This document shows, one piece after another, positions 13,556-42,394 of a stretch of 64,000 nucleotides of DNA. The DNA comes from Actinomycetota bacterium (lineage in GTDB: Bacteria > Actinomycetota > Actinomycetes > Nanopelagicales > Nanopelagicaceae). A program made the translations under genes and the position numbers. The notes beneath the pieces are model-generated. The model saw only the letters and a list, made by a program, of their open reading frames with translations, did no database searches and was not told the DNA's origin. Position 1 is the first letter of the stretch, and each line of letters opens with the position of its first letter. The stretch is from NCBI GenBank assembly GCA_005800815.1, contig SYEK01000013.1, forward strand, positions 19-64,018, given 5' to 3'.

Positions 13556-14791
13556 TTATGTCGATTTTAGGAGTTTCTCAAGCTGTGACCAACCAATTTC
13601 ATCTATTTTCCCTTGGACAATCTCGTGAGCTAATTGGGCAATTATCTCCCACTCGCTGCCAACCATCGCACTCCACTTTCTTTGACGCCAACTAATTTCA
13701 GTAGACTTAAATAGTTCTAGTCCAGGGGCATCTGATATATAGAGCTCAAAATCTCCCTTTGTTGTAGATCCAGTGATACGAGTACTGCCAAGAGGTATGT
13801 CACTGCCTACGACCGTTACAAATTTTTCAAATTCCGGCGCTGGAGTAAGAATCATGGGATCTTTTGAGGCCCAAGCAGCAGCAGAGTTTAACTGAAGATT
13901 CCACCAACGATCTCTACTTGAATCGCTTAGTATTGGATAGACCCCAGCATTTGTTTCAACTGTAAGATTTTTCAATAAACCCGAATTTTCCTTAGATAAT
14001 TGGCTCACACCAAGTAGTGCGCTTTGGATAAAACCAGAAGCCGGAAATGTTCGGACTCGGACTGATTGGATGCCATTCTTAATGAGTTGATTCTCAGTAA
14101 TAACAGCTTCAATATCAAAAATCTCAATGAGACCCCGACTACCTGTCCACAAATTTGTAACTGTTGGAATATTTTCAAAGGCACCTGCCGCTGCTATCAA
14201 TCCAAGGGTGGCGGCAGAGGCACGATTAAATCGAGGCTTTCCTTGAAGCTCAAGAGAAACCTGTCCAATTCCACCCATATTTGCTCCAGCCAGGTGAAAA
14301 GCATGCCTCGTTTTTGTTTTATCTAATCCAATACCTGCCGCCGCCGCTGCCGCCGCTCCAAAAGTTCCTGCTGTTGCAGTTATGTGCCAGCGTTTTCTGT
14401 GGCTTGCTCCAAAAAAATGAGCAATAGAGGCGCTTGCTCTCATACCTGCCAGAGCAGATACCAGAAAATTTGGTCTAAACCTAGAATAAGAAATTAAGGT
14501 CGCCAGACTTGCGGCAAAAACTACAGAACCAGGATGATTCACCGCCGACCAATCAAGATCATCCTTATCCTCGAAGGCAGACTGGCTGGCAAGTCTTGCG
14601 GCCAATCCCACTGCCCCATCATGTGCAAGAAGAGATTGTGAATTTGATTTGAAATTGGCACTAAGAACGCAAATTATAAAATCAGAGAGTAAGACTTCGA
14701 GGCGATTCAAGATATCCTCAGAATAATCGAGAGTAGAGAAATCACTCAATTTCTCAATTAATTCATTTGCTAACTCTTCTTTTTTTACCAT
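13556..14791 (-). CDS. MmgE/PrpD family protein
   Basis: 411 aa. Family-typical N-terminal helix region and alanine-rich core (GAAAAAAAGIG). The specific function cannot be called. Confidence 0.7.
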   Translation of the reverse strand: MVKKEELANELIEKLSDFSTLDYSEDILNRLEVLLSDFIICVLSANFKSNSQSLLAHDGAVGLAARLASQSAFEDKDDLDWSAVNHPGSVVFAASLATLISYSRFRPNFLVSALAGMRASASIAHFFGASHRKRWHITATAGTFGAAAAAAAGIGLDKTKTRHAFHLAGANMGGIGQVSLELQGKPRFNRASAATLGLIAAAGAFENIPTVTNLWTGSRGLIEIFDIEAVITENQLIKNGIQSVRVRTFPASGFIQSALLGVSQLSKENSGLLKNLTVETNAGVYPILSDSSRDRWWNLQLNSAAAWASKDPMILTPAPEFEKFVTVVGSDIPLGSTRITGSTTKGDFELYISDAPGLELFKSTEISWRQRKWSAMVGSEWEIIAQLAHEIVQGKIDEIGWSQLEKLLKST

Positions 14792-15037
14792 CTTGGTGAG
14801 ACCCTAACTCTCGTTGCCTCGGATCTAATAGGAACACTAATCACCTGAGTGCCCATGAGATAAATCTAAGGCAAGATTCTCTGGAGGTGAAATCTAACAC
14901 GAAATCTCTATATCACTTCAGGGCATAAACTATCCGTACTGGAAAGCACCGTGTTATGAGGCGGATAATCCCTGAAAATGAGTGTACAAAATCTTAAAAA
15001 GGAGGGGTAAAGTGAGAGAAACGACCAAAGGAGTGAA

Positions 15038-15790
15038 ATGCAGAAAACTGAAGACTTGAAAAAAAAGAAGAGTGCAATCATAACTGGGGCTTCTCGTGGG
15101 ATTGGCTTTAGTATAGCGATGCGACTGGCGCAAGAAGGTTTTAGATGTGCGATTATTGGAAGAGAGCGGTCAAAAATCGAGCAAGCAGCGAAAGAAATTT
15201 TCGCTTCCACTAATTCTGATGTACTACCACTAGTTGCCGATGTGTCGGAATGGCTCGAGTGCGAGAATGCCGCTAAAAGTGTTTTGCATGAGTTTGGTTC
15301 TATCGACGTTTTAGTGCCTAACGCTGGAATTGGAATAATTGGTTCAGTTGAGGAGGCGAACCCTTTAGACTGGGCGAGAATGATTCAAATAAATTATTTA
15401 GGTACTGCTCATATTATTAAAGCGGTTCTACCAGTGATGAAAAGACAGGGTGAAGGAGACATCATTGCAATAGTTTCAGCTGGTGCTACAAAAGGATACC
15501 CGGAATGGTCTGGTTATTGCGCAGCAAAGTGGGCTGTAATGGGCTTTATGGATAGTTTTGCGCAAGAAGTTATCTCGCAAGGGATTCGCGTTACGACTTT
15601 GTGCCCTGGTGGCGTGGACACATCTTTTTGGGATGATCTCAATAAAGAAATAAATAGGACAGGCTCAGAGGGAAGGAGTAAGTTGATGGCCCCAGCAGAT
15701 GTTGCAGAGCTGGTCGCTCTTCAGATCAACTTGCCTAGGAACGTAATGTTGAAATCTGCATTGTTTTTTCCTACTAACGAGTGGCACTAA
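15038..15790 (+). CDS. SDR family oxidoreductase
   Basis: 250 aa with TGASRGIG and YCAAK motifs. Confidence 0.85.
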   Translation: MQKTEDLKKKKSAIITGASRGIGFSIAMRLAQEGFRCAIIGRERSKIEQAAKEIFASTNSDVLPLVADVSEWLECENAAKSVLHEFGSIDVLVPNAGIGIIGSVEEANPLDWARMIQINYLGTAHIIKAVLPVMKRQGEGDIIAIVSAGATKGYPEWSGYCAAKWAVMGFMDSFAQEVISQGIRVTTLCPGGVDTSFWDDLNKEINRTGSEGRSKLMAPADVAELVALQINLPRNVMLKSALFFPTNEWH

Positions 15791-15992
15791 TCAGGTACTT
15801 TTTCGATATTATCAGATCAAAAAGTAATTTATACCTGACTTTTGATATTTTTATCTCTTGATATTAAGGACTATTGGATGATAACCTTGTCCTAATCAAG
15901 AATTTTTTTTAAAGGCTATTACTAAAATAAGAAATTGACTTCTTAATCAAGATCTGTTCGAGCTTGTGTCTTATTTAGAAAGAGAATTTTAT

Positions 15993-16820
15993 ATGAGCGA
16001 TGTTGCCGTAGTAACTGGTGGGGCATCGGGTATCGGTCGTGCTATCGCAACTAAGTTGGCTGAGAACCATATTGTTATACTCATTGATATCAATCCTGAT
16101 GGACTTCAAGAAGTAGAGAAGGATGTTGCAAACAAAGGGGGTGAGATTATTAGCGTACTTGGAGATGTCTCATCTCGGCAAACGCATGTGAGAGCACGAG
16201 CAATAGCTGAAGAAAAAGGTAGACTGATTGCTTGGGTAAATTGTGCTGGACTCACGCGAGAAGCCCCTCTGCATGATTTTCCAAACGATTCAATATTCAT
16301 GGAAAATATAATTGGGATTAATCAAGTGGGCTCTTTGTGGGGCTGCGCCGAAGCGGTTGCATCTTTCACTGCAGGAAAGGTCCCGGGATCAATTGTAAAT
16401 ATTTCATCCGTGCATGGACGCCGAGCATGGCGCGGTCACGCGGTCTATGAGATGACAAAAAGTGCAGTTGATGCACTTACGAGAAATATCGCGGTTACAT
16501 ACGGACCATATGGAATTCGTGCAAACGCTGTGGCTCCAGGGGCAGTATTGACTCCAGCGTTGAAGCAGGCTTTTCTTGATGCTACAGATCCACATGAGCG
16601 CAGGGAGGTATTAGAGCGATTGACACCTCTAAAAAGATTAGCCGAACCAAGCGAAATTGCAGAAGTAGTTGTTTTTTTACTCTCACCCAAGGCCTCTTAT
16701 GTATCTGGACAAAGCATAGGAGTTGAAGGAGGCTGGACTTCAGCACTAGGCGTGGGCGACTTAGATACTGATCTTGCAAAGAGATATGGATTAAGGCCTG
16801 AGAATGGTCTGCCTATTTAA
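15993..16820 (+). CDS. SDR family oxidoreductase
   Basis: ORF 15966..16820. The likely start is the ATG at 15993 (MSDVAVVTGGASGIG). YEMTK catalytic motif. Confidence 0.8.
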   Translation: MSDVAVVTGGASGIGRAIATKLAENHIVILIDINPDGLQEVEKDVANKGGEIISVLGDVSSRQTHVRARAIAEEKGRLIAWVNCAGLTREAPLHDFPNDSIFMENIIGINQVGSLWGCAEAVASFTAGKVPGSIVNISSVHGRRAWRGHAVYEMTKSAVDALTRNIAVTYGPYGIRANAVAPGAVLTPALKQAFLDATDPHERREVLERLTPLKRLAEPSEIAEVVVFLLSPKASYVSGQSIGVEGGWTSALGVGDLDTDLAKRYGLRPENGLPI

Positions 16821-16855
16821 AGATTACAAAGTCAATACACTTTTGAAGTAAGATT

Positions 16856-17767
16856 TTGACCACTACAAGAAATGAGGCAATTATGACAACTTACGAGGCA
16901 ATTCCTATTCCGGATTCACTATGTGATTTGGGTGAGGGAACACTTTGGGATGAGAGAAGTAAATGCTTCGTTTGGGTGGATGTATTTGATGGGTTGGTCA
17001 AGACTTATGATCCCACAAGTGGTGACATTAAAGAGCATGTCTACAAATCGATGGTGACATATGTTGGTAAACGAGCCTCGGGTGGCTTTGTTTTGGCCTT
17101 GGGTGACTCAATTGCTCTCACAGACAGCAATTTCAAGATTCAACGAGAAATCCCATTGGGACTTGACCTTAAGGTAGTAAGAACCAATGATGGAAATATC
17201 GATCCATCTGGTTGTCTGTGGGTCGGTGGTGCAGAAAGTATTGAGGGAAGTGCAAGTGGTGATCTATTCAAGATTGATAAAAATTTCAATAAAAGTATTC
17301 ACCGAAAAAATATTCATATCGCTAATGGTATAGATTGGTCACTTGATGGGAAAATGATGTTTTATATTGATTCTGCGACACGAAAAATATCTCGCTATCA
17401 ATTCAATTCACAAACAAGTGAGATAGTAAGCGAATTGACCCCAATTGATGTTAGCGATGTAACCGGACTTCCAGATGGAATGTGCACCGATAGTCTAAGC
17501 AATATCTGGGTGGCTTTTTACGGATGTGGTCAAGTCCGCAACTACTCTCCTGATGGCGAGCTTCTCAACATTGTGCAGGCACCAACAGCCTTGACTACTT
17601 GTGCCTCATTTGGTGGAAAGGATTTAAAAACCCTGTTTATCACATCAGTGAAAGATTACCGAAGTCCAGAGTTTGCTTTTGATTCAAAAAATGACCCATA
17701 CGGTGGAATGTGTTTTGAAGTGGATCTACCCATTTCAGGCAAGTTGGATTTCTTTTTTAACGCCTGA
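16856..17767 (+). CDS. SMP-30/gluconolactonase/LRE family sugar lactonase
   Basis: 303 aa. LGEGTLWDE..., NDGNIDPSG, PDGMCTD beta-propeller lactonase motifs. Start uncertain (alternative ATG at 16883). Confidence 0.8.
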   Translation: MTTTRNEAIMTTYEAIPIPDSLCDLGEGTLWDERSKCFVWVDVFDGLVKTYDPTSGDIKEHVYKSMVTYVGKRASGGFVLALGDSIALTDSNFKIQREIPLGLDLKVVRTNDGNIDPSGCLWVGGAESIEGSASGDLFKIDKNFNKSIHRKNIHIANGIDWSLDGKMMFYIDSATRKISRYQFNSQTSEIVSELTPIDVSDVTGLPDGMCTDSLSNIWVAFYGCGQVRNYSPDGELLNIVQAPTALTTCASFGGKDLKTLFITSVKDYRSPEFAFDSKNDPYGGMCFEVDLPISGKLDFFFNA

Positions 17768-17874
17768 GCGAAAGAAATGACCTCTTTTTATACTCAAGCC
17801 ATACTACTGAACCAGTTGATGTGCTCCTTTGCAAAAATTCAAGACTCTCAGGCAAATCGGGTTTGGTCCATTCT

Positions 17875-18663
17875 ATGAGTAGGCCTATGCTTGAATCTAT
17901 GAATCTGACTGGAATGCATATCTTTGTGACAGGTGGTGCTCAAGGCATTGGAGCGGCAATCGTCAAGAGTGCCGCTGAATGTGGAGGGCGAGTAAGTTTT
18001 GGAGATATTAAAGATGATCTTGGCAAGGATTATGCAAGTTCGCTCAAGGAATCCGGCTTAGATGTCACATATGTCCACTGTGATGTCGGCAATCTTGAAA
18101 GCGTTGAACAAGCACATAAAGAGATTGTTACTCGCTACGGAATGGTAAATGGATTAGTCAATAATGCCGGCGTAAGTTCAAATGCCGATCCAGTAGAGAT
18201 GACTTCTGCAGAGTGGGATTATTTTTTCTCAATTGATCTGAAATCTGTTTGGCACACGGCTTGGTGTGTCCTCCCAGCAATGAGAGCAGTAAAAAAAGGT
18301 TCAATCGTCAATATCGCCTCTATTCATGCTCGAATGACATTCCCAAAATTTTTCCCATATGCTGCTGCAAAATCTGGTGTTATAGGACTGACTCGGAATT
18401 TAGCCCTTGATGAGGGTGAACATAACATCCGAACAAATGCAGTCTCCCCGGGATATACAATGACTCCGATACTTGCCGCATGGTTTGACTCAGTAATACC
18501 TGAGCAACAAAAACTTTCTTTAGATGCGCAACCACTCAAGCGCTTTGCTCATCCTTCTGAGATTGCTCAGGTCGTCACATTTTTATTGTCAGATGCTGCA
18601 AGTTTTGTAAACGGAGCAGATTGGATCGTTGATGGAGGATTACACGCTCGCTTTGCTAATTAG
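17875..18663 (+). CDS. SDR family oxidoreductase
   Basis: ORF 17821..18663 with TGGAQGIG and YAAAK motifs. The start is ambiguous among ATGs at 17875, 17887 and 17899. Confidence 0.8.
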   Translation: MSRPMLESMNLTGMHIFVTGGAQGIGAAIVKSAAECGGRVSFGDIKDDLGKDYASSLKESGLDVTYVHCDVGNLESVEQAHKEIVTRYGMVNGLVNNAGVSSNADPVEMTSAEWDYFFSIDLKSVWHTAWCVLPAMRAVKKGSIVNIASIHARMTFPKFFPYAAAKSGVIGLTRNLALDEGEHNIRTNAVSPGYTMTPILAAWFDSVIPEQQKLSLDAQPLKRFAHPSEIAQVVTFLLSDAASFVNGADWIVDGGLHARFAN

Positions 18664-18718
18664 AAAACTTAGTTTATAGATATTCTCGACTAATCAAGTA
18701 CCGGATAAATTCTGATTG

Positions 18719-19309
18719 TTAACCAATTACCTTGAGTATCTTGCTCATCAATTCGATCTCTGCGCTTTGAGAGGCGAGTATCTCATTACCTAACCCCTTG
18801 ACATCGGCATTGGTTGTCTTCTCTATCATGGAGAGCATCTCAACTGCTCCATCGTGATGGGCAATCATCCCAGTTAGAAATAATCTATCAAACTCTTTGC
18901 CCGTTGCACTCGTGAGAGAGGCTAATTCATCCTCTGTGAGCATCCCCTTCATTGAGCTCATCGAATGGCCAGGATCCTCACCCAGACCCGCCGCAATGAG
19001 CCAGCTCCTCATCGCGGTGATCTCAGGACCCTGTGCATCTCTAATTTGCTTAGCAAGGGCGATGACCTCAGGGTTTGAAGAGTTCTTCATAGCGAGCTCA
19101 GAGATGAGTACGGCTTGCTGGTGATGGGGAATCATCATCTGCAAAAACATGGCATCACTGCTGCTCATCTGATCACTCGATACACCGTGCTTCATCGAGC
19201 CCATATCGTGGCCACTATCTGTGGATTTACCGCCCGACAAACTCACATATCCAATGCCAATGAGCAAGAGTCCGAGTATCGCGATGCCTAATTTTCGATC
19301 GAGCTTCAC
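18719..19309 (-). CDS. DUF305 family protein (four-helix, His-rich; membrane anchored or secreted)
   Basis: 196 aa. N-terminal TM segment and duplicated MIPHHQQAV / MIAHHDGAV motifs characteristic of DUF305. Confidence 0.75.
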   Translation of the reverse strand: MKLDRKLGIAILGLLLIGIGYVSLSGGKSTDSGHDMGSMKHGVSSDQMSSSDAMFLQMMIPHHQQAVLISELAMKNSSNPEVIALAKQIRDAQGPEITAMRSWLIAAGLGEDPGHSMSSMKGMLTEDELASLTSATGKEFDRLFLTGMIAHHDGAVEMLSMIEKTTNADVKGLGNEILASQSAEIELMSKILKVIG

Positions 19310-23865: not shown

Positions 23866-24264
23866 CTACTTCGTTCGTACGACGATGTTGACAATGGCCT
23901 CAGGGGTTGCGCCATCACCAAGCTCTGCCTTCACGTTCGTAGGAATCCCATTTATCTGGGCGGCGGCCAAAATCGAGAGTTGTGCTGCGATCTCACTCAT
24001 CCAGTAAAACGATGCCGGACCGGCACGATCTAAGATCCGCTGTGCTTGGGCGATACGAGCATCAGAGAATTTCTCTAGGTCATTTTTATCATCGTTGATG
24101 ACATCGAGAAGAAAGGATTTGATCTCGGTGCCGATAGCAGATGATTCGTTGGACTCTTGGATGAGGGCTTTGAGTTCGGCATCTAGGCCCCGAGGTTTGC
24201 CTTTTTTCTTTTTGCGGTTGAGAAAGAGATAGATCACAAAGGTCAGCAGAATGAGTTCAAACAT
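23866..24264 (-). CDS. Hypothetical membrane-anchored protein
   Basis: 132 aa. One N-terminal TM helix followed by a KKKKGK stop-transfer. No recognisable family. Confidence 0.5.
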   Translation of the reverse strand: MFELILLTFVIYLFLNRKKKKGKPRGLDAELKALIQESNESSAIGTEIKSFLLDVINDDKNDLEKFSDARIAQAQRILDRAGPASFYWMSEIAAQLSILAAAQINGIPTNVKAELGDGATPEAIVNIVVRTK

Positions 24265-24297
24265 GTGAATAGGCTACACATGCTCACCGAGAAATCT

Positions 24298-24543
24298 CTA
24301 GCCTTTGAGAGCGGCTAACTTCTCTACAACCTGCTTGGCAGAGGGATTAGTCATCGCAGCGCCATCGGTGAAGACCAGTGTTGGGACCGTGCGATTGCCA
24401 CCATTTACTCTCTCGACGATTTCGGCTGTACCAGGTACCTCTTCGATGTTGATCTCTTCAAAGCTGACGCCCAGCTCGGCTAACGCGGATTTAAGGCGCT
24501 TGCAGTAACCGCACCAGGTCGTTGAATACATGATGAAAGACAT
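24298..24543 (-). CDS. Mycoredoxin / NrdH-like glutaredoxin
   Basis: 81 aa. The CGYC active site in the YSTTWCGYCKRLK context and the TVPT cis-Pro loop are typical of actinobacterial mycoredoxin. Confidence 0.8.
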   Translation of the reverse strand: MSFIMYSTTWCGYCKRLKSALAELGVSFEEINIEEVPGTAEIVERVNGGNRTVPTLVFTDGAAMTNPSAKQVVEKLAALKG

Positions 24544-24546
24544 GAG

Positions 24547-24924
24547 TTACCGCTCTCTCTTTAAAAACGAGTTATTGCTCAACTTTAACACTCTGGTCAT
24601 CATTGTGACCGGGATTGAGTTTCTGTTGGATGCGACTGCGCGATAAGCGCCACGGCCAAGCTCTCCCGAGACTCTGATAAGACGGGCGAGCAGGGTATTG
24701 CCGCGATGGTGAAGCAGAAGTGCGATCGCATCTGCTCCCCCATACTGCCCGCCCTCTGTGATAGCCCATACCTGTTTGGCACATTGCTCGAGAGTGAGAT
24801 TAAATGGGGCTAGGTCACTGCTTTGAAAAGGTAGGGCTCGCACTTTGAGTTTGTGTTGGAGCCAGGTCAGCGACTGCTTGCAGAACTCACACTCACCGTC
24901 ATAGATGACCGTAATTTTACTCAT
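24547..24924 (-). CDS. Thiol-disulfide oxidoreductase DCC family (DUF393)
   Basis: 125 aa. The N-terminal YDGECEFC motif defines the DCC family. Confidence 0.8.
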   Translation of the reverse strand: MSKITVIYDGECEFCKQSLTWLQHKLKVRALPFQSSDLAPFNLTLEQCAKQVWAITEGGQYGGADAIALLLHHRGNTLLARLIRVSGELGRGAYRAVASNRNSIPVTMMTRVLKLSNNSFLKRER

Positions 24925-25646
24925 GATAATGACAAGTCAATCTCTTGAGCATCGTGCAAGACCTGCTTGGGCAGTCCCTTCAGTACGTGCACTGTGGCCT
25001 CTCCGGCTACGACCCAGCGCTGGGTACCTGACCGGTTGACGATCGCCGTCATCTCATCGATACCGATCAAAATTGCATCGTTAGGTGCGTGCATGAGAAC
25101 TTTGGCTGCGCTATCTGGGATCCATTTGAAGAACTTATTAAAGTGTGGGATCACCCGGATATCGGGGAGTAGATTCAAACCCAGTGTGGGTGGACTCTTA
25201 GTGAAGCGAAAATTTGGGATATGGGAGCTGAGCACCATCGCACCTGCGCTACAGCCAGCAAGTGAGGCACCACTAGTCCAATTATTGACGATGGCAGACC
25301 ACACGGGTGTACCGATCAACGTTCTGGCAAGATAGTGTGGATCTCCACCAGAGATGTACATCAGAGCACTGTCATGGATGGCATCGACATGTTCTTGCTT
25401 GAATGCATCATCGCGGCTGTAAATAGGCAGATGTACTGATTGCACGCCGATGCGTTGGGCCTGGGCTTGACCGAGCTCTCTCCAGAAATCTAATCTGCCA
25501 TCACTCTCGCGCCCGGCTGCAGTCGGGATCTGTATGTATCTGGGTTGTTTGCCGTGTGAAAGGCCATCATCGATTAATGATCGCTCAAGGCTGGCCATTG
25601 CAGGCAGGTATTCACCTGAACCAACAAGTGCCAGAGAGCCATTCAC
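24921..25646 (-). CDS. Peptidase S51 / class-I glutamine-amidotransferase-like (cyanophycinase / dipeptidase E family)
   Basis: 241 aa. ISGGDP and GCSAGAM nucleophile-elbow motifs. Stop overlaps the start of the DCC gene. Confidence 0.7.
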   Translation of the reverse strand: MNGSLALVGSGEYLPAMASLERSLIDDGLSHGKQPRYIQIPTAAGRESDGRLDFWRELGQAQAQRIGVQSVHLPIYSRDDAFKQEHVDAIHDSALMYISGGDPHYLARTLIGTPVWSAIVNNWTSGASLAGCSAGAMVLSSHIPNFRFTKSPPTLGLNLLPDIRVIPHFNKFFKWIPDSAAKVLMHAPNDAILIGIDEMTAIVNRSGTQRWVVAGEATVHVLKGLPKQVLHDAQEIDLSLS

Positions 25647-25710
25647 TTGATTAGTCTAGTTTCAAACCCACATACCTCTTAACTCTGGGTCATACAGGTA
25701 CGATGCGCAA

Positions 25711-26475
25711 ATGAGTAAATCTATTACTGCCCAAAGCCTTCGAAAGATCAATATCTTTGCCGGAGTTCTGCACCTTTCTCAGATGGCGGCCGTGCTGGCC
25801 CTGAGCAATGACTTTGCTCTACCCGTCACGGCTACGTATATGGCAGGTCCACCTGGGACGACATTTGCAGCCCCAATAGTTCTCTTTAATACCCCCATAG
25901 GTTTGACCGTTGCGATTTTTCTGGGGCTCTCTGCCCTTGCACACTTCATCGTGGCCAGTCCTACCTTCTTTCCTCGCTACAGCGCAGGTATTGCTGCACA
26001 GAGAAACTACTTCCGCTGGGTCGAGTACTCGATCAGCTCTTCAGTGATGATCGTCTTGATCGCACAAGTCACAGGTGTTGCCGAGATCTCAGCGATCATC
26101 TCCATCTTCGGTGTGAACGCATCGATGATCCTCTTTGGTTGGTTACAGGAGAAGTACGAGACCCCCGGTAATGGCGGCTGGCTACCCTTCATCTTCGGCT
26201 GTATCACCGGCTTTGTGCCATGGATCGTTCTGGCGTTCTACGTCCTATCTATCGGAGGAGTCGGTGATACATCGGCGCCAGCATTTGTCTATGGCATCGT
26301 CTTTACCATCTTTCTCTTCTTTAACTCATTCGCACTCGTGCAGTGGTTGCAGTACAAAAAAGTCGGTAAGTGGAGTGAGTACATCCGTGGTGAGCGCACC
26401 TACATCACGCTCTCACTCATCGCTAAATCAGCTCTGGCGTGGCAGATCTTTGCCAATACACTCATTCCCACCTAG
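25711..26475 (+). CDS. Heliorhodopsin
   Basis: 254 aa, 7 TM. From memory it is near-collinear with the prototype heliorhodopsin 48C12. Matching segments are AGVLHLSQMAAVLALSNDFALP, NYFRWVEYSISSSVMIVLIAQ (counterion Glu), FGVNASMILFGWLQEKY, LFFNSFALVQWLQYK and SLIAKSALAWQIF. The retinal Schiff-base Lys codon AAA is at 26425-26427. Confidence 0.9.
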   Translation: MSKSITAQSLRKINIFAGVLHLSQMAAVLALSNDFALPVTATYMAGPPGTTFAAPIVLFNTPIGLTVAIFLGLSALAHFIVASPTFFPRYSAGIAAQRNYFRWVEYSISSSVMIVLIAQVTGVAEISAIISIFGVNASMILFGWLQEKYETPGNGGWLPFIFGCITGFVPWIVLAFYVLSIGGVGDTSAPAFVYGIVFTIFLFFNSFALVQWLQYKKVGKWSEYIRGERTYITLSLIAKSALAWQIFANTLIPT

Positions 26476-26529
26476 ATTCAGGTTCATCCCCCGGTTATGG
26501 GTCGCAGAGATTAGGAGCAGACTAGGACA

Positions 26530-27192
26530 ATGGGCTTTTGGGCTGATAGAAAAGCTAAGCGTGCATTAGCGCGGGCAAGGCATGACTATGACTTTGCGCA
26601 TGCAAAGTGGAGCCGTGATATGGAGATCTTCAATAAGATTAAAACTGCATTCGAACTCGCAATCAAAGGTGAGGATGCAGCCTCTAATCTAGCGGTGCAA
26701 AAATCCGGTGAGATAGTCATCTGGAGCGGTCAGGGCCAGTACCACGAGGCCGGGCGTGCGCCGGGACAGTATGTGGGTGGCACTCAAGGATTGAGTATTC
26801 CAATCGTTGCCGGCATCAGATATCGCGTCGGTGCGATGAAGGGAAGCTTTGTCCCAGGAGATGCGATACAAGTGTATAAAGAGGTGGGAAACGTTGTGCT
26901 GAGCACTGATCGCATCATGTTCAACGGGATGTATAACACCAAAGAATGGGCCTTTGCCAAGTGGAACGGGGCGGCTACATCAGATGATGAGAGTGATTAC
27001 ATTTTTCACGTCAGTAATCGCCAGAAGACTTCGGGTATTTTATTTCACGCCAGCGTCGGTAGAGAGTTCAACAGGTTCCTAGCCCAAGCCATCAACGCTG
27101 CAGAAAATGGTATTGAGAGCGTTCTGCCAGTTGTGAAAGAGCATATGGCCGCCTTGAAAAAAGATGAGCCAAAGATGCCGGTGCTCACCTGA
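26530..27192 (+). CDS. Hypothetical soluble protein, co-directional with and 54 nt downstream of heliorhodopsin
   Basis: 220 aa. AGGAG-like RBS upstream and no TM segment. The central beta-rich region (GEIVIWSGQGQYHEAGR...GIRYRVGAMKGSFVPGD...VVLSTDRIMFNG) may be bacterial-PH-like. No confident family. Confidence 0.55.
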   Translation: MGFWADRKAKRALARARHDYDFAHAKWSRDMEIFNKIKTAFELAIKGEDAASNLAVQKSGEIVIWSGQGQYHEAGRAPGQYVGGTQGLSIPIVAGIRYRVGAMKGSFVPGDAIQVYKEVGNVVLSTDRIMFNGMYNTKEWAFAKWNGAATSDDESDYIFHVSNRQKTSGILFHASVGREFNRFLAQAINAAENGIESVLPVVKEHMAALKKDEPKMPVLT

Positions 27193-27195
27193 TCC

Positions 27196-28593
27196 TTATC
27201 GCTTGAAGCTAGGTTGCAAAACTCCGATATCCAATATCTGCTCAATCTGAGCAAGAGCCGTCACTAAGAGCGTTTCATCATCTGCCTTTGCCACAACTCC
27301 TAGACCAACGGGTAGGCCCTGAACTATTCCCATGGGAACAGTGCCAATCGGTGTACCTGCAATTGCCGGAGCCATCGTGATCCAACTGTTATCACCGTAA
27401 GCATCACCTTCACCCAATGTACTGATCCAGGCCGGTGAATAGGTAGCACCTATTAACACATCAACATCGGTGAAGCCCTTGGTGAGAGTTCTTTGGGCCC
27501 AGGCTAAGTTGCGTGCACGCTTAACCTTATAAGCGTTGTTACGTCCACCTAGTTTTATAGCCTTATCAAATAACTCTTGTGCGAAGTATTTGAGCTCTGC
27601 CTCTTTATGTGCGCTGTTATAGGCAACGAGTTGGGCCAAGGAGCGCAGTGATGTATCGGCGCGCACGCTCAGATAAGAGCCCATCTCATCGAATAATTCA
27701 TGCAGCAAGACCTCGTACTCATCAGCCCCGACATCCTCTCCGGGTGCCTTAAGAGCAACCTCTACCAATCTCATCCCCGCCTTGGCTAGTTGTGAGAGCA
27801 CAGAGTCAAAGAGAGAATCTGTTGCACTGTGGCCTGTGAGCCATGATCGGACCACACCGACCTTGAGTGCACGCGAGTCATCGCAGGCCGCGACCAGGCC
27901 AGTTGTTGCGCTCATGATCTCCAACAAAATCGCGGCATCTTTGATAGAGCGCGCCATCGGGCCAGGTGCATCTTGGTTGGCACTGATCGGAACGATGCCC
28001 TGTGTGGGGACAAGACCGACTGTGGGCTTGATACCCACGCAACCGTTCAAAGATGCAGGACAGATGATTGAGCCATCAGTCTCAGTACCAACAGCTAATG
28101 TGACTAGCCCTGCAGCGATCGCTGCTCCCGATCCAGATGATGAGCCACCTGCGCTGTGTTTGTGTATCCAAGGATTAGCGGTCAATCCCCCCAGGCCAGA
28201 CCATCCACTCGTTGATGATGAGGATCGAATATTTGCCCACTCAGAGAGATTTGTCGATGCAATGATGTTGGCACCGCCTGCGCGTAATCTGCGTACTAGC
28301 TCGCTATCTGTACTCACCGGGTGATCAAGTAGCGCGGTTGATCCTGCGGTACCGGGCAGACCAATCGCCTCAATATTATCTTTGATCAGAATTGGCAGCC
28401 CTGCAAGGGGTGAATCTAAATCAAAGTTTTTCTCATCTGAGTTTGGGGCAAGTGCAAGAATTGAGTTGAGCTCATAGCCCGTTGCATCGATCTGATTTAT
28501 ACGGTCGAGGGCTTGCTCGGCTAGGAGCGATGGCGTTGTTGCTCCCGAGCGTAAATCATGGATTGAATCAACGGCCGAGCTCATCGCTGTCAT
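27196..28593 (-). CDS. Amidase (amidase-signature family)
   Basis: 465 aa with the GGSSSGSGAAIAAG signature. Confidence 0.85.
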   Translation of the reverse strand: MTAMSSAVDSIHDLRSGATTPSLLAEQALDRINQIDATGYELNSILALAPNSDEKNFDLDSPLAGLPILIKDNIEAIGLPGTAGSTALLDHPVSTDSELVRRLRAGGANIIASTNLSEWANIRSSSSTSGWSGLGGLTANPWIHKHSAGGSSSGSGAAIAAGLVTLAVGTETDGSIICPASLNGCVGIKPTVGLVPTQGIVPISANQDAPGPMARSIKDAAILLEIMSATTGLVAACDDSRALKVGVVRSWLTGHSATDSLFDSVLSQLAKAGMRLVEVALKAPGEDVGADEYEVLLHELFDEMGSYLSVRADTSLRSLAQLVAYNSAHKEAELKYFAQELFDKAIKLGGRNNAYKVKRARNLAWAQRTLTKGFTDVDVLIGATYSPAWISTLGEGDAYGDNSWITMAPAIAGTPIGTVPMGIVQGLPVGLGVVAKADDETLLVTALAQIEQILDIGVLQPSFKR

Positions 28594-28662
28594 ATGGCAA
28601 GGTTAGCCTGAGAGCAATGGGGCTACCAATGCGGATTGGGCCATAACTAGTACATTATCGCA

Positions 28663-30231
28663 GTGAAGAGACTAGTACTCCTACTCATTGGAGCTGCCCT
28701 GCTCGTACAATCTCCTTCGATGGCGGCAAACGATAAGTTCGCCGATGCTCAGACATCCCTGAGTTACACCATCTACAAACCAGGCAAGACCCTAGGTTTG
28801 GGTACAAACAAGTTTGAGTTGATCCCATGTACAGATCAGAACGAGCCATGGCTGTATACAAAATTCGGTGGCTCAGTTCGCTACCTAGAGATCATGCAAA
28901 GCAAAGCTGGGGTCACATGCTCTGATCCAGCTCCATCTAAAGAGCTTCGAGGCATCACAATTAATGGCGCAAAGGCCAAAGTACATGTCTATTGTGATCC
29001 GGCAAAGCCTGCATCATTTGCGAAGTGCACAAGCGCCGATATCACTCGGGTGGGTGGTTACTTAAAATTTACGAATAAGGGTGTGAAAAAACTCTCCCCC
29101 ACCGAGATTCAGGTTCAGGCCTTTGGTGGGATCACATATGCCCAACTCTTGGATGTGGCAAGATCTTTGAAGTCTGTCACTGCTAGTGGCAACACTCTGG
29201 TCGCGCCTTACTCATCAGATGTAATCCTTGCAACTCCTGCCTATGTGCCCAGTCCACCGGCAGGAGGAAGCGATGAGTATCGCTGTTTCTTACTCGATCC
29301 AGAGTTCACAGTGGATTCATACCTACAGTCGGTGAGGATCACTCCAGATAATTTGAAGCTCTCACACCACGGCATTCTCTACAAAGTACCGGCGGCTAGT
29401 GTCGAGGCAACCAAATTAGTCGACACACAAGCACCTGGTCTTGGATGGCCATGCTTTGGTGATACCGGTATCCCCGGAGCAGGTGCTTTCTCTGCCGCCT
29501 CTGCATCGAGTTGGATCTCCTTTTGGGCTCCTGGAGGAAATTTCAGGGCCTATCCAGTGGGTGTAGGGATGAAGATTGCAACGGGTGATCAATTTGTTCT
29601 GCAGGCCCACTTTCACACGAGTAGCCAGACAAGCGCCCAAGACACGAAGGCATCGATGCAGGTCACCCTCAAACTTGCCTCATCTGCAGTGAGTGAGTTA
29701 AAGACGCTTCTTGTTGCAGCACCGATCGAGATCGCTTGCGCGCCCAATGAGTCAGGACCTTTGTGTGTGCGCTCTGCTGCACTACTTGATCTGGCCAATC
29801 GCACCTCGGCAAAGGCGGCGTTCCAAGAGACAGGCCTGCTCTTAATATGCGGCAAAGATCCCATCAGACCTGTGCCGAGCCCCATCTCAGATTGCTCGAA
29901 TACTCTGCGCTCGCCTATGAAGATATATGGGGCAACTGGTCATATGCATCAGCTCGGAAGATCCATCACCATCACTCACCAGAGTGCGTTGACTTCAAAG
30001 GTAACTACTCTCTCGACTCGGCCTATATGGGACTTTGATAATCAAAGTACCGATTGGCAAAGCCAGCCCATCCAGGCGATGCCCGGTGATAGTGTGAAAG
30101 TGAGTTGTTCCTTTGATATCGGACTGCGTGCGCGCCTGCCAGAGTTTAAGAACCTCTCCCCTAATTACGTGGTCTGGGGTGAGGGAACGCGTGATGAGAT
30201 GTGCCTTGCCATTATCAACTACACCGATTGA
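28663..30231 (+). CDS. Secreted copper type-II ascorbate-dependent monooxygenase-like protein (PHM/DBH fold) with an unassigned ~200-aa N-terminal domain
   Basis: 522 aa, GTG start, signal peptide ...SPSMAAN. CuH-type ligands LSHHGILY and LQAHFH. CuM-type ligands GHMHQLG and RDEMCLAIINY. Confidence 0.75.
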   Translation: MKRLVLLLIGAALLVQSPSMAANDKFADAQTSLSYTIYKPGKTLGLGTNKFELIPCTDQNEPWLYTKFGGSVRYLEIMQSKAGVTCSDPAPSKELRGITINGAKAKVHVYCDPAKPASFAKCTSADITRVGGYLKFTNKGVKKLSPTEIQVQAFGGITYAQLLDVARSLKSVTASGNTLVAPYSSDVILATPAYVPSPPAGGSDEYRCFLLDPEFTVDSYLQSVRITPDNLKLSHHGILYKVPAASVEATKLVDTQAPGLGWPCFGDTGIPGAGAFSAASASSWISFWAPGGNFRAYPVGVGMKIATGDQFVLQAHFHTSSQTSAQDTKASMQVTLKLASSAVSELKTLLVAAPIEIACAPNESGPLCVRSAALLDLANRTSAKAAFQETGLLLICGKDPIRPVPSPISDCSNTLRSPMKIYGATGHMHQLGRSITITHQSALTSKVTTLSTRPIWDFDNQSTDWQSQPIQAMPGDSVKVSCSFDIGLRARLPEFKNLSPNYVVWGEGTRDEMCLAIINYTD

Positions 30232-30237: not shown

Positions 30238-31722
30238 CTATTTCTTAGGGTGGGCCACAAACCAATCCAGGACCTGTGATGCAAAGTTCTCATCTAACTC
30301 TGGATTGTGTGCTCCGCCATTGATACTCCAGAGTTCGACTGAACTACTAGGACATGAGTAAGTAGATGCAACGCTCTCTGTGCCAGCAATACTCATCACC
30401 AAATCAAATTCTTTTCCATTAACTGGATTCATCACACATTTATCTATCTCAGCCCAGCGCTGGACACTTTGAACTGCGCTGGTATAAGAGTTTTGGAGTA
30501 GATTTCCACCGCTATAGCTGATGACCCCATCGGCCATCCCATGGATGTGCAGGATATTGAGGGCAGATTTGGCTGAACATGAGTCTGGGTCGATATCCAT
30601 CGCACCTGCAAGACCTGCAATTGCAGCGAGTGTTTGTGGATACATACAGGCGAAGGCATAGCTCATGAAATGGCCATTGGAGTGTCCAAAGAGATAGATA
30701 CGTTTGGAATCTACCGATGAACGCTCTGAGATCTCCTCGATCAAGGATTTGATGTAGGCGATATCATCGACTGGATTGGCATTGAAGTTACAGCAGGCCA
30801 CAGATGCATTCCAGAATTGATTGCCTTGGCTATCTTTGAGGCCATCAGGGGCTGCATAGATGAACCCTTGCCCATAAGCAGCTCTCTGTAAAAAAGTAAA
30901 TTTACTCTGACTGGTGCTATCACCGCTATAGCCATGAAGATCGATAAGAAGTGGGGCTGGGCTCTGTGCTGAAAAAGCAGCAGGTAGGACAACAGTGACT
31001 GGACGGTCACCACCTGCAATAAATGTTGCACTTGATTCAAATTCAATTGAGCTAAGATCTTTGCTTACTGGGCTGTTCATGAAAACTAGAGCAGCGGTAA
31101 TAACAAGTACAAGTGCAATGACAGTTGACTTTGCCGCACCCATGCGCTGAGGAAGCCCTGCGATGTTGCTCTCTCGGTCTGCCTTGAGATCTTTCAGTAC
31201 GTTGGCAAAGTGAAAGGCGATGCCAAGTAGAGACCCGGCCATCAATACCCAAGCAGGTGGTGTGCGATTGGTTGCAAAGAAGATACTTGCAGGAAGAGCT
31301 GCGCATGCGATCGCATAAGGCAGTGGTGACAGAGGTGAGAACTTGAAGTAGAAGTTATATGCGATCCCACAGCCGACTCCGAGCAGATAGACCGCACCAC
31401 CTTTAAGGCCCAGGGGGCCCAGTAAGTTAGCGATAATGGCGATAGGTAGGAGGATGAAAGTGGCCCTGCGTAGTTGGGCCGTGGAGATCGTTGCAGCAAC
31501 TAATGGTTTATTGCCTCTTGCGTGTTTGAGATCATCCTTAAAGTCATAGAGATCATTGCTCCATCCGATGATTAACTGGCCCAGAAAGACGGTGAAGGCG
31601 ATGAGATATGCAGGTCCTTGCCACCACAGCCGCGTGGCCAGTACGAATGAGATCGTGGTGATAAGCATGGTGGGGCCAAAGTGAGCCGCCTTTGCATAGG
31701 CACCGAGGCCTTTGAGAGACAT
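30238..31722 (-). CDS. Fusion protein: UbiA-family prenyltransferase (N-terminal, polytopic) plus LpqC/PHB-depolymerase-type esterase (C-terminal)
   Basis: 494 aa. SNDLYDFKDD (NDxxDxxxD) and KDLKADRE motifs across about 8 TM helices. This is followed by an alpha/beta-hydrolase domain with LFGHSNGHFMS (GxSxG) and HIHGMADG. Confidence 0.7.
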   Translation of the reverse strand: MSLKGLGAYAKAAHFGPTMLITTISFVLATRLWWQGPAYLIAFTVFLGQLIIGWSNDLYDFKDDLKHARGNKPLVAATISTAQLRRATFILLPIAIIANLLGPLGLKGGAVYLLGVGCGIAYNFYFKFSPLSPLPYAIACAALPASIFFATNRTPPAWVLMAGSLLGIAFHFANVLKDLKADRESNIAGLPQRMGAAKSTVIALVLVITAALVFMNSPVSKDLSSIEFESSATFIAGGDRPVTVVLPAAFSAQSPAPLLIDLHGYSGDSTSQSKFTFLQRAAYGQGFIYAAPDGLKDSQGNQFWNASVACCNFNANPVDDIAYIKSLIEEISERSSVDSKRIYLFGHSNGHFMSYAFACMYPQTLAAIAGLAGAMDIDPDSCSAKSALNILHIHGMADGVISYSGGNLLQNSYTSAVQSVQRWAEIDKCVMNPVNGKEFDLVMSIAGTESVASTYSCPSSSVELWSINGGAHNPELDENFASQVLDWFVAHPKK

Positions 31723-35349: not shown

Positions 35350-36312
35350 TTACTTGCCGAGCCAGGCTTTGACTTGATCGGCATGGGCATCAATCCACTT
35401 CTGGGCCGCTGCCTCTGGTGTTGTTCCGTTTTCAATGTCAAGAGCAACCATGTTCTGATCATCATTTGTCCACTTGAAGTTCTTGATCAAAGTCGTAAAT
35501 GATGAATTACTATCATTTAACTTCTTAGAGATTAACTTGATCAGTGGAGTCGATGGATAATCAGTGAGTCCACTAGCTTGGGCTGCATCGGTCCAATCAT
35601 TTGCAGGGAACTTGACATGTCCCTTCTCAAGATTGGGCATCTTGGCGTGAAGAGTCCATGGCTGCCAGGCATAACCAATAAATGGCGTCTTATTAGCCTC
35701 AGCCTTGGTGAAACCATCGATGAGAGCGACCTCTGAACCTGCGAAGATGACCTTGAAGTTCAACTTGTTAGCAGAGACCATCTTTTCACCGATTGTTGTG
35801 TATCCCGGAGGACCTTCATACCAGGCGCCCTTACCACCTGAATCTGCGTTCTTAAAGAGATCGGCATACTTTCCAAGGTTCTTGGAGTCGACGATATCTG
35901 GATACTTCTCGACCATCCACGGTGCAACATAGACGCCGATGAGGCCAACGTTTCCACCATCTCCGACATCAATGACAGCGCCTCTATCACTCCACTCTTT
36001 CCAACGTCCACCGCCCCAATCTTCGATGAGCACATCGATTGTTCCGGCCTCCATGGCATCATAAGTAATCGGACCTTCATCCAATGTGGTCTGAGTGATC
36101 GTGCAACCTAACTCCTTCTTAGCAATCTCGGCAACTACCTGTGCCGATGCTGTGTAACCATTCCATGCATGCATGGCAATTGCCCAGGATCCGCAGTCGC
36201 CCGATGCCTCGCCGGCAGAGTCATTAACACTGCTGCTGCACCCTGAAACAACCAAGGCAGCTGCGATAACAGCACTAAGTACTGCAGAGCTAGGCCTAAA
36301 TAATGACTTCAT
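35350..36312 (-). CDS. proX: Glycine betaine/choline ABC transporter substrate-binding lipoprotein
   Basis: 320 aa with lipobox VSGC. OpuAC/ProX-type sequence with an aromatic-box Trp-rich region. Confidence 0.8.
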   Translation of the reverse strand: MKSLFRPSSAVLSAVIAAALVVSGCSSSVNDSAGEASGDCGSWAIAMHAWNGYTASAQVVAEIAKKELGCTITQTTLDEGPITYDAMEAGTIDVLIEDWGGGRWKEWSDRGAVIDVGDGGNVGLIGVYVAPWMVEKYPDIVDSKNLGKYADLFKNADSGGKGAWYEGPPGYTTIGEKMVSANKLNFKVIFAGSEVALIDGFTKAEANKTPFIGYAWQPWTLHAKMPNLEKGHVKFPANDWTDAAQASGLTDYPSTPLIKLISKKLNDSNSSFTTLIKNFKWTNDDQNMVALDIENGTTPEAAAQKWIDAHADQVKAWLGK

Positions 36313-36407
36313 TAACCCTCCTCAGAGTTTGAATTTGACCTTAGCCTAGGGTGTAAACCGAGTTCGAGGTAGATGGCGCAGGGTTCAAGGGCCACTTTTT
36401 CCCTGGC

Positions 36408-38339
36408 TTAACTGGAGCGATGGGCCCTGGCCTGCATGATCCGATCAAAAATTACCCCCAGAAGCAGGATGCAGGCACCGGCTATGAGGCCCTTTCCCTG
36501 GAGCTCTGGCTTTGAATTTCCCACGATCACCAGATAGCCCAACCCGCCTCCACCTACAAAACCACCGATAACCACGACGGAGAGCACATAGATTAGACCT
36601 TGATTGGTCGCCAGCACGATAGTTTTCCTGGCTGCCGGCAGTTGAACCTTCGTGATGATCTGTCGAGTCGTCGATCCCGCTGCAGTTGCCGCCTCAATAA
36701 GTGTTGGCGGTACCGCGCGAATCCCCTCACTCACAAGCTTGACGACAACAGGGGTTGCATAGATGACGCCGGTAAGGATTGCAGTAAATCGAGTGGGACC
36801 AAAAAGTCCCAAGATCGGCACGAGATATACGAAGGCTGGAAGGGTCTGAGCAGCATCTAAGAGGGGCCGTAAAGAGCGCTGCGCCCTATCACTGCGCCCC
36901 ACCCAGATTCCCAGTGCCATTCCAAAGATCATCGTAAGTAAAGTGCCGACAATGGTTTGGGTCAGGGTCAGCATCGCCTCAAACCAGAGACCTGAAAGGA
37001 CGATACACATGGCCAACACACCGGCGAGAACTCCTGTGCGCACTCCACCCATTACTAGAGCCAGACAAATGATCATCGAGACCGTCAAATACCAGGGAGA
37101 TTGAGAGAGAATAGTCTCCAGAGGGTTAAGAATCGAGTATGAGATCAGATCTTTCAATCCATCGGTAAAGATAAAGAGATTACCTAATATCCAAGCCGTT
37201 ACATTATTGGTCAGCTCTTGGACTTGTCGGGCAACCATGAACTCTTGAGGCCAGATAGCGGCCCAAAGAAGGGTGCGGGAGATCACGACACTTATAATCG
37301 CAAGGACTCCTGCGATCACTAAGGTCAGGCGCTTTCGCTTTATATCCTGGGCCGTTGGGGGGATAAATGACTCTTGACGCTTTGCCGCCGCACTCGTGCT
37401 GCGATCCATCAAAATTGCCAGGAAAACCACGGCAATTCCAGCTACAAAGCCTTGGCCTACGTTTCGAATAATAAGTGCTGAGACCACCGGGTTGCCAAGT
37501 CCAGGGGCCCCAATAAGGGCTGCGATAACCACAAAGGAGAGAGCGGCCATCACCGTTTGATTGATCCCAACGACGATCATCTGCTTTGCCATGGGCACCT
37601 GTACTTTTCGCAGCGTCTGGCTTGAGCTCGAACCCATGGAGACAGATGCCTCTACAGGTGCAGGATTGAGAGTTCTGATGGCATGGGAAGTGATGCGTAT
37701 ACAGATTGGAATCGCATAAATCATCGTCGCAATCGTCGCCGATGCCGCTCCAATCATGAACACGAGTGCGATTGGTGCCATATAGACAAGCGTGGGTAAA
37801 ATCTGAGCGAGATCTAAAAATGGAGTCATCACTTTCAATGCACGATCAGATAGCCCTGCCCAAATACCCAAAGGCAGACCAAAGGCCAATGAGAGCAGGA
37901 CCGCTGCAAGAGTAAGGGCGATCGAATCCATCGTGAACTGCCACATACCCAATGCTCCGCAACCCAGAAGAAGACAGACAGATAAAAGAGCGGTCTGCCA
38001 CTGGCTTGTCGCAAAGACTACGAAGGCGACTATCCCCACAACGCCAAGCCAGCCAATGATTGGTATAACCGAATTGGGGGCTGGAACAGCGATGAGATCT
38101 CTTATGGCTTGGACAAAACCATCAATCACTCCACGGATAGGATTGAAAAAATAGATGAAGACTGTACTCTCCGTGCGATTACCCCGGATCGATAAGGCCC
38201 TCTCTCCAACAAAGGATGTAAAAGAGGTGTTCTCATAGGTGGCGATTTGTAATGTATGCCTGCCATTGAGAATGCGAGCCAAGAAAATCCAGAGTACTAC
38301 CGAACCCAAAAGTAGATAGGATTTTCTAACACGCATCAA
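36408..38339 (-). CDS. proW: Glycine betaine/choline ABC transporter permease (tandem fused ProW/OpuAB domains)
   Basis: 643 aa containing two BPD-type permease modules. Confidence 0.85.
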
Positions 38340-39364
38340 GTGACTCCGGCAATCAAGCGCAATACATCCTCACTGGAGACAACGCCCAAGGCCTTTCCAT
38401 TATCGCTCACACGTACGGGCTTATGTGTCTGCAGTATGACCTCTGCAGCATCGCGGATAATCATGGTCGCTGCCAGCTCTGGGCCATCTAGAGCCTCACC
38501 TGAGTGCGATTTCCGAGCCAGATATTTGAGTGTGAGAACGTGGGACTTCGGGATGTCACGCACAAAGTTGGCAACGTAATCATCGATAGGATTTGCCACC
38601 AAATCCTCGGGGGTCCCCGTCTGGACAATGGCTCCATCGCGCATGATTGCGATGCGATCTCCGACTTTTACCGCCTCAGATAGATCATGGGTGATAAAGA
38701 CCATGGTCTTTCCCAACTCATGGTGCAGGCGGATGATCTCCTGTTGCATATCCCTTCGGATCAAGGGATCAAGTGCGCTAAAGGGCTCATCCAAGAAGAG
38801 AACCTGTGGGTCAACGGCCAATGCACGGGCAAGTCCAACGCGCTGTTGCATTCCACCTGATAACTGCTCCGGATATGCATGTGAATATCCCTGTAGTCCA
38901 ACCAGTTCGATGACCTCATTGGCACGGCCATGGCGCTCGGCTTTTTTCACCCCATTGATCTCCAGGGAGTATGCGATGTTATCGATTACCTTACGGTGTG
39001 GCAGTAAGCCAAAGTGCTGAAAGACCATTGAGAAACGGCTCTTACGAAGTTCGCGCAGACGTGCTGCATCAACGCTGAGCACATCCTCACCCTCAAAGGT
39101 CAGGGTCCCAGCGGTGGGTTCGATCAAGCGGGTCATACAGCGCACGAGAGTTGATTTACCTGAGCCAGATAGCCCCATGACAACGAAGACCTCACCAGGG
39201 GCGACATCGAATGAGACATCACGAACTGCGATCGTGTTTCCGGTTTGGGCGCGCAGCTCTGATCGCGTCAAATCGGCCAGGGAAGAGCCCATAACTTTCT
39301 CGGGATTGCTACCAAAGACCTTCCAGAGATTTTTTACCGAGATCATAGGTGCCTCAGTGCCCAC
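38336..39364 (-). CDS. proV: Glycine betaine/proline ABC transporter ATP-binding protein
   Basis: 342 aa. [25 protein letters not shown]-terminal CBS-like tail. 4-nt overlap with the permease gene. Confidence 0.9.
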
Positions 39365-39381
39365 TCAGCTCGCCCCTTCAC

Positions 39382-40857: not shown

Positions 40858-40864
40858 AGGGGAT

Positions 40865-42374: not shown

Positions 42375-42394
42375 TATGATGGAATACTAGAGAG

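Follow-up and report, generated by a model that had tools for sequence, protein, structure and literature searches.

Bacterial heliorhodopsins (HeRs) show no pumping and form long-lived photo-intermediates (PMC11109279). Among the described members, 48C12 (PDB 6su3/6su4/6uh3) comes from an actinobacterial fosmid of Lake Kinneret, and AbHeR, the HeR of Actinobacteria bacterium IMCC26103 (Nanopelagicaceae), binds glutamine synthetase (GS) and raises GS activity in the light through K216, K217 and K220 (PMC9529153). GS, NAD synthetase, photolyase and alpha/beta-hydrolase are among ten groups of HeR neighbors (PMC11109279). For the NadE-GS-HeR(-oxidoreductase) arrangement a single promoter has been stated, predicted with E. 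coli- or Pseudomonas-type tools (PMC11109279, PMC9529153). A strand-specific metatranscriptome of Candidatus (Ca.) Planktophila yielded class-2 HeR transcripts with hydrolase, peptidase and DUF393, as well as assembled transcripts joining HeR to GS and NAD synthetase, and glutaredoxin adjacency to HeRs was reported in 31 cases (PMC8612252). As to promoters, maps of transcription start sites (TSSs) in M. tuberculosis place a TANNNT motif centered 7-12 bp upstream of the TSS, without a -35 consensus (PMC3898074), and an in silico survey detected a leaderless signal in ~19% of actinobacterial genes (mean 19.2%; PMC3160421). Our literature search found no paper joining heliorhodopsin with leaderless, or leaderless with Nanopelagicales names. 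Here we analyze a 64,000-nucleotide (nt) stretch of an Actinomycetota bacterium of the Nanopelagicaceae (assembly GCA_005800815.1, contig SYEK01000013.1; hereafter “the window”), in which a HeR gene occupies positions 25711-26475 of the + strand. We consider it likely that this gene is a functional Ca. Planktophila HeR, a regulatory, non-pumping photoreceptor, and that it is expressed from a leaderless mRNA.

The identity of the gene product, which a first-pass annotation made from the letters of the stretch had already proposed, is beyond doubt as judged from its sequence. The 254-amino acid (aa) protein (plus stop codon; delimited by open reading frame [ORF] analysis and family profiles) matches Pfam PF18761 (Heliorhodopsin) over the full profile (1-242/242; E 5.9e-96, 320.9 bits against a cut-off of 26.7) and the HeR equivalog NCBIfam NF038020 with 337.8 bits (cut-off 100). 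Its best PDB matches are the 48C12 entries (6su3, E 1.5e-109), followed by the HeR entries 6is6/7clj (~5e-57), and the alignment to 48C12 runs without gaps, with 167/246 identical residues (67.9%). The annotation had delimited the feature as 25647-26475; its end is correct, but the ORF starts at 25711, and 25647 is the first intergenic base after a divergent S51 peptidase gene. We place the HeR start at 25711 because ORF analysis identifies this ATG as the first start codon past the upstream in-frame stop, because starting at the next in-frame Met (M25) would lose His21 and half of the first transmembrane helix (TM1), and because an aligned M-[S/A/T]-K start is common to all 80 orthologues.

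The alignment to 48C12, which had been set beforehand as a check, retains the Lys/Glu pair and confirms the four residue contexts named at the outset. The retinal Schiff-base Lys239 (codon AAA, 26425-26427, + strand, in SLIAKSALAWQ) aligns with Lys241 of 48C12, the TM3 Schiff-base counterion Glu105 (GAG, 26023-26025, +, in RWVEYS) with Glu107, His21 (CAC, 25771-25773, +, in VLHLSQ) with His23, and His78 (CAC, 25942-25944, +, in LAHFIV) with His80. Likewise, the SxxxK motif of TM7, as defined in PMC12817590, is present, with Ser235 and Lys239 aligning with Ser237 and Lys241 of 48C12. In total, 19/19 functional or pocket residues checked in the alignment are identical (48C12 numbering: His23, Ser76, His80, Asn101, Arg104, Trp105, Glu107, Tyr108, Ser112, Met141, Glu149, Phe206, Phe209, Gln213, Tyr226, Glu230, Ser237, Lys241, and Trp246), and by this comparison the chromophore site of the window HeR is intact. 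The window protein differs from 48C12 in being two residues shorter at the N-terminus and in about a third of its residues, most of which face the lipid or sit in loops; its third intracellular loop reads KKVGK where 48C12 has KGKGK. This positively charged loop (codons 216-229, KKVGKWSEYIRGER; 26356-26397, +) shares its residue numbering with AbHeR, and the GS-binding residues K216, K217, K220, and R226 are all present. So are E147, K148, E150, and E228, whereas T151 replaces E151, E223 replaces D223, and W212 replaces Y212 of AbHeR. Lys and Arg are confined to the N-terminus and the loops at 89-98, 148, and 216-229, except for the buried Arg102 and Lys239, and the other loops carry no Lys or Arg at all. 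This distribution, together with the gapless 48C12 alignment, fits a predicted arrangement of seven transmembrane helices in inverted topology with a cytoplasmic N-terminus.

The gene is also an intact, ordinary and lineage-standard gene of Ca. Planktophila (acI-A, Nanopelagicaceae). Its closest genome match is a Ca. Planktophila metagenome-assembled genome (MAG) with 98% protein identity, the 80 best loci are without exception Nanopelagicaceae/acI (71-98% protein identity), and the protein database holds at least 6,361 HeR homologues at E <= 1e-60. The public contig SXJV01000012.1 (GCA_005779625.1), which is 99.8% identical, differs at six positions within the gene, all of them synonymous. 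Every cultured member of the Nanopelagicales has one heliorhodopsin gene alongside one actinorhodopsin gene (PMC12817590).

Upstream of the gene, the first-pass annotation had pointed to a promoter hexamer at a suggestive distance and to a missing Shine-Dalgarno (SD) sequence, and both observations stand. The -10-type hexamer TACGAT (TANNNT; 25699-25704, +) ends 6 nt before the ATG, from which it is separated by the spacer GCGCAA (25705-25710, +), and none of the SD 4-mers GGAG, GAGG, and AGGA occurs within 26 nt upstream of the start codon. Since a TANNNT string is expected at one fixed position with a chance of ~1-2%, the hexamer alone proves nothing; its significance derives from its conservation among orthologues and from a genome-wide peak at a spacer of 6. 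To describe the former, we collected the 60 nt before the aligned start codon from all loci, which gave 78 distinct sequences. T at -7 is conserved in 78/78 of them, A at -11 in 74/78, and T at -12 in 62/78, while the remaining upstream positions carry less than 0.45 bit each, apart from -1, where 76/78 have a pyrimidine. The full TANNNT lies exactly at -12 to -7 in 62/78 regions and one base further upstream in another 8 (70/78 in total), and SD-like 4-mers appear in just 5/78. The hexamer is kept across at least seven upstream-gene contexts, as the neighboring gene may be GS, a UbiA-hydrolase fusion, S51 in either orientation, a photolyase-related gene, or others. Even where GS lies upstream (28 distinct regions, with the GS stop codon 24-47 nt away, or 190 nt in one), 27/28 keep xANNNT at -12 to -7; the exception carries TACCGT, shifted upstream by one base. 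In the close relative L001, whose protein is 98% identical, homology to the window resumes at 25696, only 3 nt before the hexamer. The hexamer is thus locked at -12 to -7 amid otherwise unrelated flanks, which supports a leaderless transcript.

The same geometry recurs throughout these genomes. Of the 57 long-ORF starts in the window, 8 (14%) have TANNNT at a spacer of exactly 6, against 0.1% of internal in-frame starts, and 3 more have it at a spacer of 7, against 0.5% of internal start codons. Over all loci, the spacer-6 geometry is found at 184/680 starts (27%) versus 0.3% of internal ones, and exactly 6 nt is the most frequent spacer length genome-wide. Gene families separate accordingly: HeR (71/79), NadE (23/24), S51 (17/19), and a RecO-like family (18/18) fall into the leaderless class, and LeuA (28/28), PanB (20/21), and Gfo/Idh/MocA (10/10) into the SD class, while GS shows neither signal (leaderless 0/31, SD 3/31). 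Window genes with a spacer of 6 or 7 amount to ~19%, which matches the reported actinobacterial mean of 19.2%, and the HeR gene resembles described actinobacterial leaderless genes (PMC3898074, PMC3160421) in its TANNNT at -12 to -7, in having no -35 consensus, and in having no SD sequence. It differs from the M. tuberculosis genes in its host, a low-GC, streamlined actinobacterium, and in that the start is predicted here from sequence. Taken together, orthologue conservation and the genome-wide class indicate that the HeR mRNA is very probably leaderless and starts at the start codon, with the TSS predicted at A25711 or within 1-2 nt of it. A leaderless HeR is in this respect a normal member of a large gene class and not an oddity.

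A search for operator-like inverted repeats in the 64-nt intergenic region returned only two 6-nt pairs, which is the chance level, and the 5'-most 60 nt of the mRNA showed no structure on folding (z = -0.43). Three HeR clusters (P0100, P0118, and P0060; longest contigs 850-943 nt) were considered as possible transcript assemblies that start at the ATG, but all of them carry 42-130 nt of upstream DNA and resemble ordinary short metagenome contigs.

The HeR gene lies between a divergent gene cluster and a codirectional gene. Facing away from it is a cyanophycinase-like S51 exopeptidase of 241 aa with a GTG start (24921-25646, - strand; Pfam Peptidase_S51; PDB 6nqc, E 2.3e-101). Three observations support this GTG start: the Pfam alignment begins at residue 7, 6nqc shares the MxGSL N-terminus, and the hexamer before the GTG is conserved. 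Orthologue conservation identifies TAGACT (25653-25658, -), 6 nt before the GTG, as the -10 hexamer of this gene, with 17/19 S51 orthologues retaining either TAGACT or TACACT at a spacer of 6-7 nt. Two back-to-back -10 boxes, one for HeR and one for S51, share the 64 nt between the two genes (25647-25710). The S51 gene is followed by a DCC1-like (formerly DUF393) thiol-disulfide oxidoreductase gene (24547-24924, -), which overlaps it by 4 nt, and, 3 nt after DCC1, by a gene for a glutaredoxin-like mycoredoxin of 81 aa (24298-24543, -; TIGR02200, 93.8 bits versus a cut-off of 89.5; Pfam Glutaredoxin). On the other side, 54 nt downstream of HeR and behind an AGGAG-type SD sequence, ORF analysis places a gene for a 220-aa protein (26530-27192, +) that has no Pfam, NCBIfam, or PDB match. 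No terminator was found between the two genes, either in an E. coli-type scan of 24200-28700 or by folding of the gap (z = +1.29); because of this and of its position 54 nt after HeR behind AGGAG, the 220-aa gene is probably cotranscribed with HeR. Further downstream, a UbiA prenyltransferase fused to an alpha/beta-hydrolase (esterase) is encoded at 30238-31722 (-); this fusion is upstream-adjacent to HeR in other Planktophila genomes and adjoins HeR in 6 loci.

How, then, might the locus work? By analogy with its characterized relatives, the window HeR would bind all-trans retinal at Lys239, with Glu105 as counterion, in a fold of seven helices with the N-terminus inside, and would act as a slow-cycling, non-pumping photoreceptor, as suggested by 48C12 (68% identity) and AbHeR. 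Upon illumination, it may modulate a cytoplasmic partner enzyme via the third intracellular loop (K216, K217, K220, R226); candidate partners are a GS encoded elsewhere in the genome and the linked S51/DCC1/mycoredoxin module. On the level of expression, RNA polymerase would recognize the -10-only promoter TACGAT (25699-25704) and begin the transcript on the A of the ATG or no more than 1-2 nt away, which would make the mRNA leaderless. Leaderless mRNAs are initiated on their 5'-terminal AUG, and translation of HeR would accordingly start directly on this codon, without an SD interaction. The SD-led 220-aa gene would ride on the HeR transcript, while the divergent S51-DCC1-mycoredoxin unit would start from a mirror-image leaderless promoter 40 nt away.

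Several points weigh against this picture. The case for a leaderless mRNA is a comparative one, built from sequence only. The window itself has an A at -1 and not the usual pyrimidine, and the transcript may therefore carry a 1-2-nt leader. The E. coli-type promoter scan of 24200-28700 did not flag the HeR start and found fewer sites than in shuffled sequences; such a scan misses the HeR promoter because there is no -35 element. In strand-specific metatranscriptome contigs of related genomes, HeR is joined to upstream genes (PMC8612252), so read-through transcripts with an internal, SD-less HeR also occur. As to function, GS is not adjacent to HeR in the window, where the upstream neighbor is the divergent S51 gene, and the S51 module lies on the strand opposite to HeR. 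Finally, Pfam scans of 61 ORFs, which cover nearly all likely genes of the window, detected no polyprenyl synthase, phytoene synthase/desaturase, lycopene cyclase, or Blh, nor any bacteriorhodopsin (type-1 rhodopsin) domain. With no retinal-synthesis genes in the window, the chromophore supply is argued from the literature on the genus, according to which most Planktophila can make retinal de novo (PMC12817590).

Related loci differ in the genes that surround HeR. In 32/81, HeR is preceded by a codirectional GS gene, which NadE in turn precedes. S51 is found within 4 kb of HeR in 19/81 loci and in several orientations: 9 loci have it directly after HeR in the same direction, and the window and L028 have it divergent. 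DCC1 is linked to HeR in ~10 loci, and DCC1, glutaredoxin (Grx), and the UbiA-hydrolase fusion recur together with S51 near HeR. In five loci (L061, L071, L073, L076, and L078), UbiA-hydrolase, HeR, S51, DCC1, and Grx are colinear on the same strand, and the window is a rearranged version of this order. It resembles the class-2 HeR transcripts (PMC8612252) in having UbiA-hydrolase, S51, and DCC1 within 6 kb, plus the mycoredoxin, but its S51-DCC1-mycoredoxin unit is inverted and divergent from HeR, and three other genes separate HeR from its UbiA-hydrolase gene, which is encoded 3.8 kb downstream on the other strand. Unlike the GS-group HeRs (PMC9529153), the window HeR has no GS immediately upstream on its strand. 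The first-pass annotation had valued this copy for an informative neighborhood; the linked genes do recur, yet their linkage is already published (PMC8612252), and HeR is universal in cultured Nanopelagicales (PMC12817590).

Against this background, we think it somewhat more probable than not that HeR is an autonomous leaderless transcription unit throughout the Nanopelagicaceae, including the NadE-GS-HeR clusters, and that packed same-strand genes, such as an S51 gene 31 nt after HeR, each have their own -10-only promoter. For the GS-type clusters, the signals predict two units, namely a leaderless NadE followed by GS, and a leaderless HeR followed by an SD-led Gfo/Idh/MocA gene. Mildly new is that HeR seems to retain a promoter of its own within a GS operon that was published as “single-promoter”; the two-unit prediction is a modest refinement that does not deny read-through transcripts. 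In the competing view, the main template for HeR translation would be a leadered or polycistronic mRNA beginning further upstream, for example inside or beyond the divergent S51 gene or, in GS loci, at the NadE promoter; initiation would be SD-independent, and TANNNT would serve as a minor internal promoter or in another role. The transcripts that join HeR to GS/NAD synthetase or to hydrolase/peptidase/DUF393 (PMC8612252) speak for it, as do the two papers that predict a single upstream promoter for NadE-GS-HeR, although those predictions came from tools trained on E. coli or Pseudomonas. The + strand of the intergenic region also offers two other TANNNT strings, at 25652 and 25657, but these lie in sequence that is non-homologous even in the 98%-identical L001. 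What makes such an upstream start unlikely in our judgment is that the hexamer stays fixed relative to the ATG in 70/78 regions while other upstream bases drift, a pattern that a -10 box should show if transcription begins at the start codon. Moreover, the lack of either signal before GS (0/31 and 3/31) fits GS, and not HeR, as the internal member of the operon.

Even if the regulatory, non-pumping role of the leaderless HeR is granted, its partner could be sought in different places. It is tempting to speculate that the S51/DCC1/mycoredoxin module, rather than GS, is the target and that light would tune peptide or nitrogen salvage or thiol-redox defense. The presence of S51 within 4 kb in 19/81 loci and several orientations, immediately downstream in 9 of them, would be consistent with such a link, and so would the DCC1 and glutaredoxin genes that follow S51 in the window and several other loci, the peptidase and DUF393 on class-2 HeR transcripts, and the 31 published glutaredoxin adjacencies (PMC8612252). 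On the other hand, ~60/81 loci have no S51 nearby, the largest group has GS (32/81), and S51 has its own conserved leaderless promoter, so that coexpression is not obligatory. The region is plastic as well, with 1.6 kb inserted between S51 and HeR in L001, and the linkage behind this candidate interaction could be residual synteny. We therefore regard the S51 module as a doubtful competitor of GS. Far less probable still is that the window HeR works as a light-driven ion transporter or channel and not as a regulator. Some viral heliorhodopsins are mentioned to transport protons (PMC11109279); bacterial HeRs do not pump and have a slow photocycle, which holds for 48C12 (68% identity) too, and the whole Schiff-base region of 48C12 is identical in the window HeR.

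Related loci also differ in genes other than those discussed so far. Eight loci (e.g., L062, L063, L067, L068, and L072) have a photolyase/cryptochrome-related gene of ~490 aa no more than 4 kb from HeR, and in 5 of these 8 it is directly upstream of HeR on the opposite strand; this proximity within Planktophila echoes the published pairing. Comparison of L001 (2287-5901) with the window (24916-25696) revealed two insertions in L001 that the window does not have: an NfeD and SPFH/stomatin-like gene pair between DCC1 and S51, and a 1.6-kb segment with a 517-aa secreted protein between S51 and HeR. The HeR locus is thus a hotspot of gene-content variation among very close strains. The 220-aa protein and a 132-aa protein (23866-24264, -; no Pfam or NCBIfam match, encoded by a gene with leaderless geometry) are conserved in acI and recur near HeR genes in 8-11/81 loci at varying positions.

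A second short divergent intergenic region of 69 nt (28594-28662) separates an amidase gene (27196-28593, -) from a copper-monooxygenase-like gene with a GTG start (28663-30231, +), and both genes have TANNNT at a spacer of 6 from the start. Such pairs of -10-only leaderless promoters, placed back to back, seem to recur in this streamlined genome. In the public MAG annotation, the S51 protein (24921-25646, -) has 225 aa and the copper monooxygenase (28663-30231, +) 503 aa, 16 and 19 residues shorter than here, and the leaderless GTG starts are missed. In acI MAGs, gene callers apparently misplace the start of leaderless genes that begin with GTG.

More distant parts of the window differ in composition. 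The GC content is 64-71% at 1-2500, 53-60% at 2500-6000, 39-48% at 6000-19000, and ~50% from 19000 on, with no N runs in 1-19000. The left end contains two almost fully overlapping antisense ORFs of ~430 aa (83-1393, +, and 152-1450, -; the latter with weak matches to pyridoxal-phosphate enzymes), a truncated phosphotriesterase fragment (1895-2350), and a major facilitator superfamily fragment (4156-5037). Contig SXJV01000012.1 would begin at window position 18017, near the GC shift, and has 15 mismatches to the window in 6.8 kb. Chimeric assembly, mis-binning, or foreign or decayed DNA could account for positions 1-19000, and gene context beyond ~19 kb to the left of the HeR gene should not be trusted. 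To the right, 35350-54414 is taken up by a large island of genes for importing and demethylating quaternary amines (glycine betaine-type). The island encodes an OpuAC-type ABC transporter, an aldehyde dehydrogenase, an MttB-family methyltransferase (40865-42301), and an IclR regulator, then a corrinoid protein, MTHFR, a pterin-binding methyltransferase, and the reductive activase RACo, and finally a formate-tetrahydrofolate ligase, electron-transfer flavoprotein alpha/beta, and a DAO-GCV_T dimethylglycine-oxidase-like enzyme. Rfam and tRNA scans of the window returned only a tRNA-Glu at 63869-63942.

The gene itself adds little to what is known of the family: it has many homologues, is present in every cultured Nanopelagicales strain, and sits in a published type of neighborhood. 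A useful by-product of its analysis is a cheaply testable statement on HeR expression, in a field where partners have so far been proposed mainly from assumed operons. Should a TSS map confirm a private HeR promoter, the “same operon” argument for GS and other partners would need rephrasing. If HeR is indeed an autonomous unit, operon-based “guilt by association,” the main route to HeR partners, would be weaker than assumed, and the dosage of HeR could be set independently of its neighbors.

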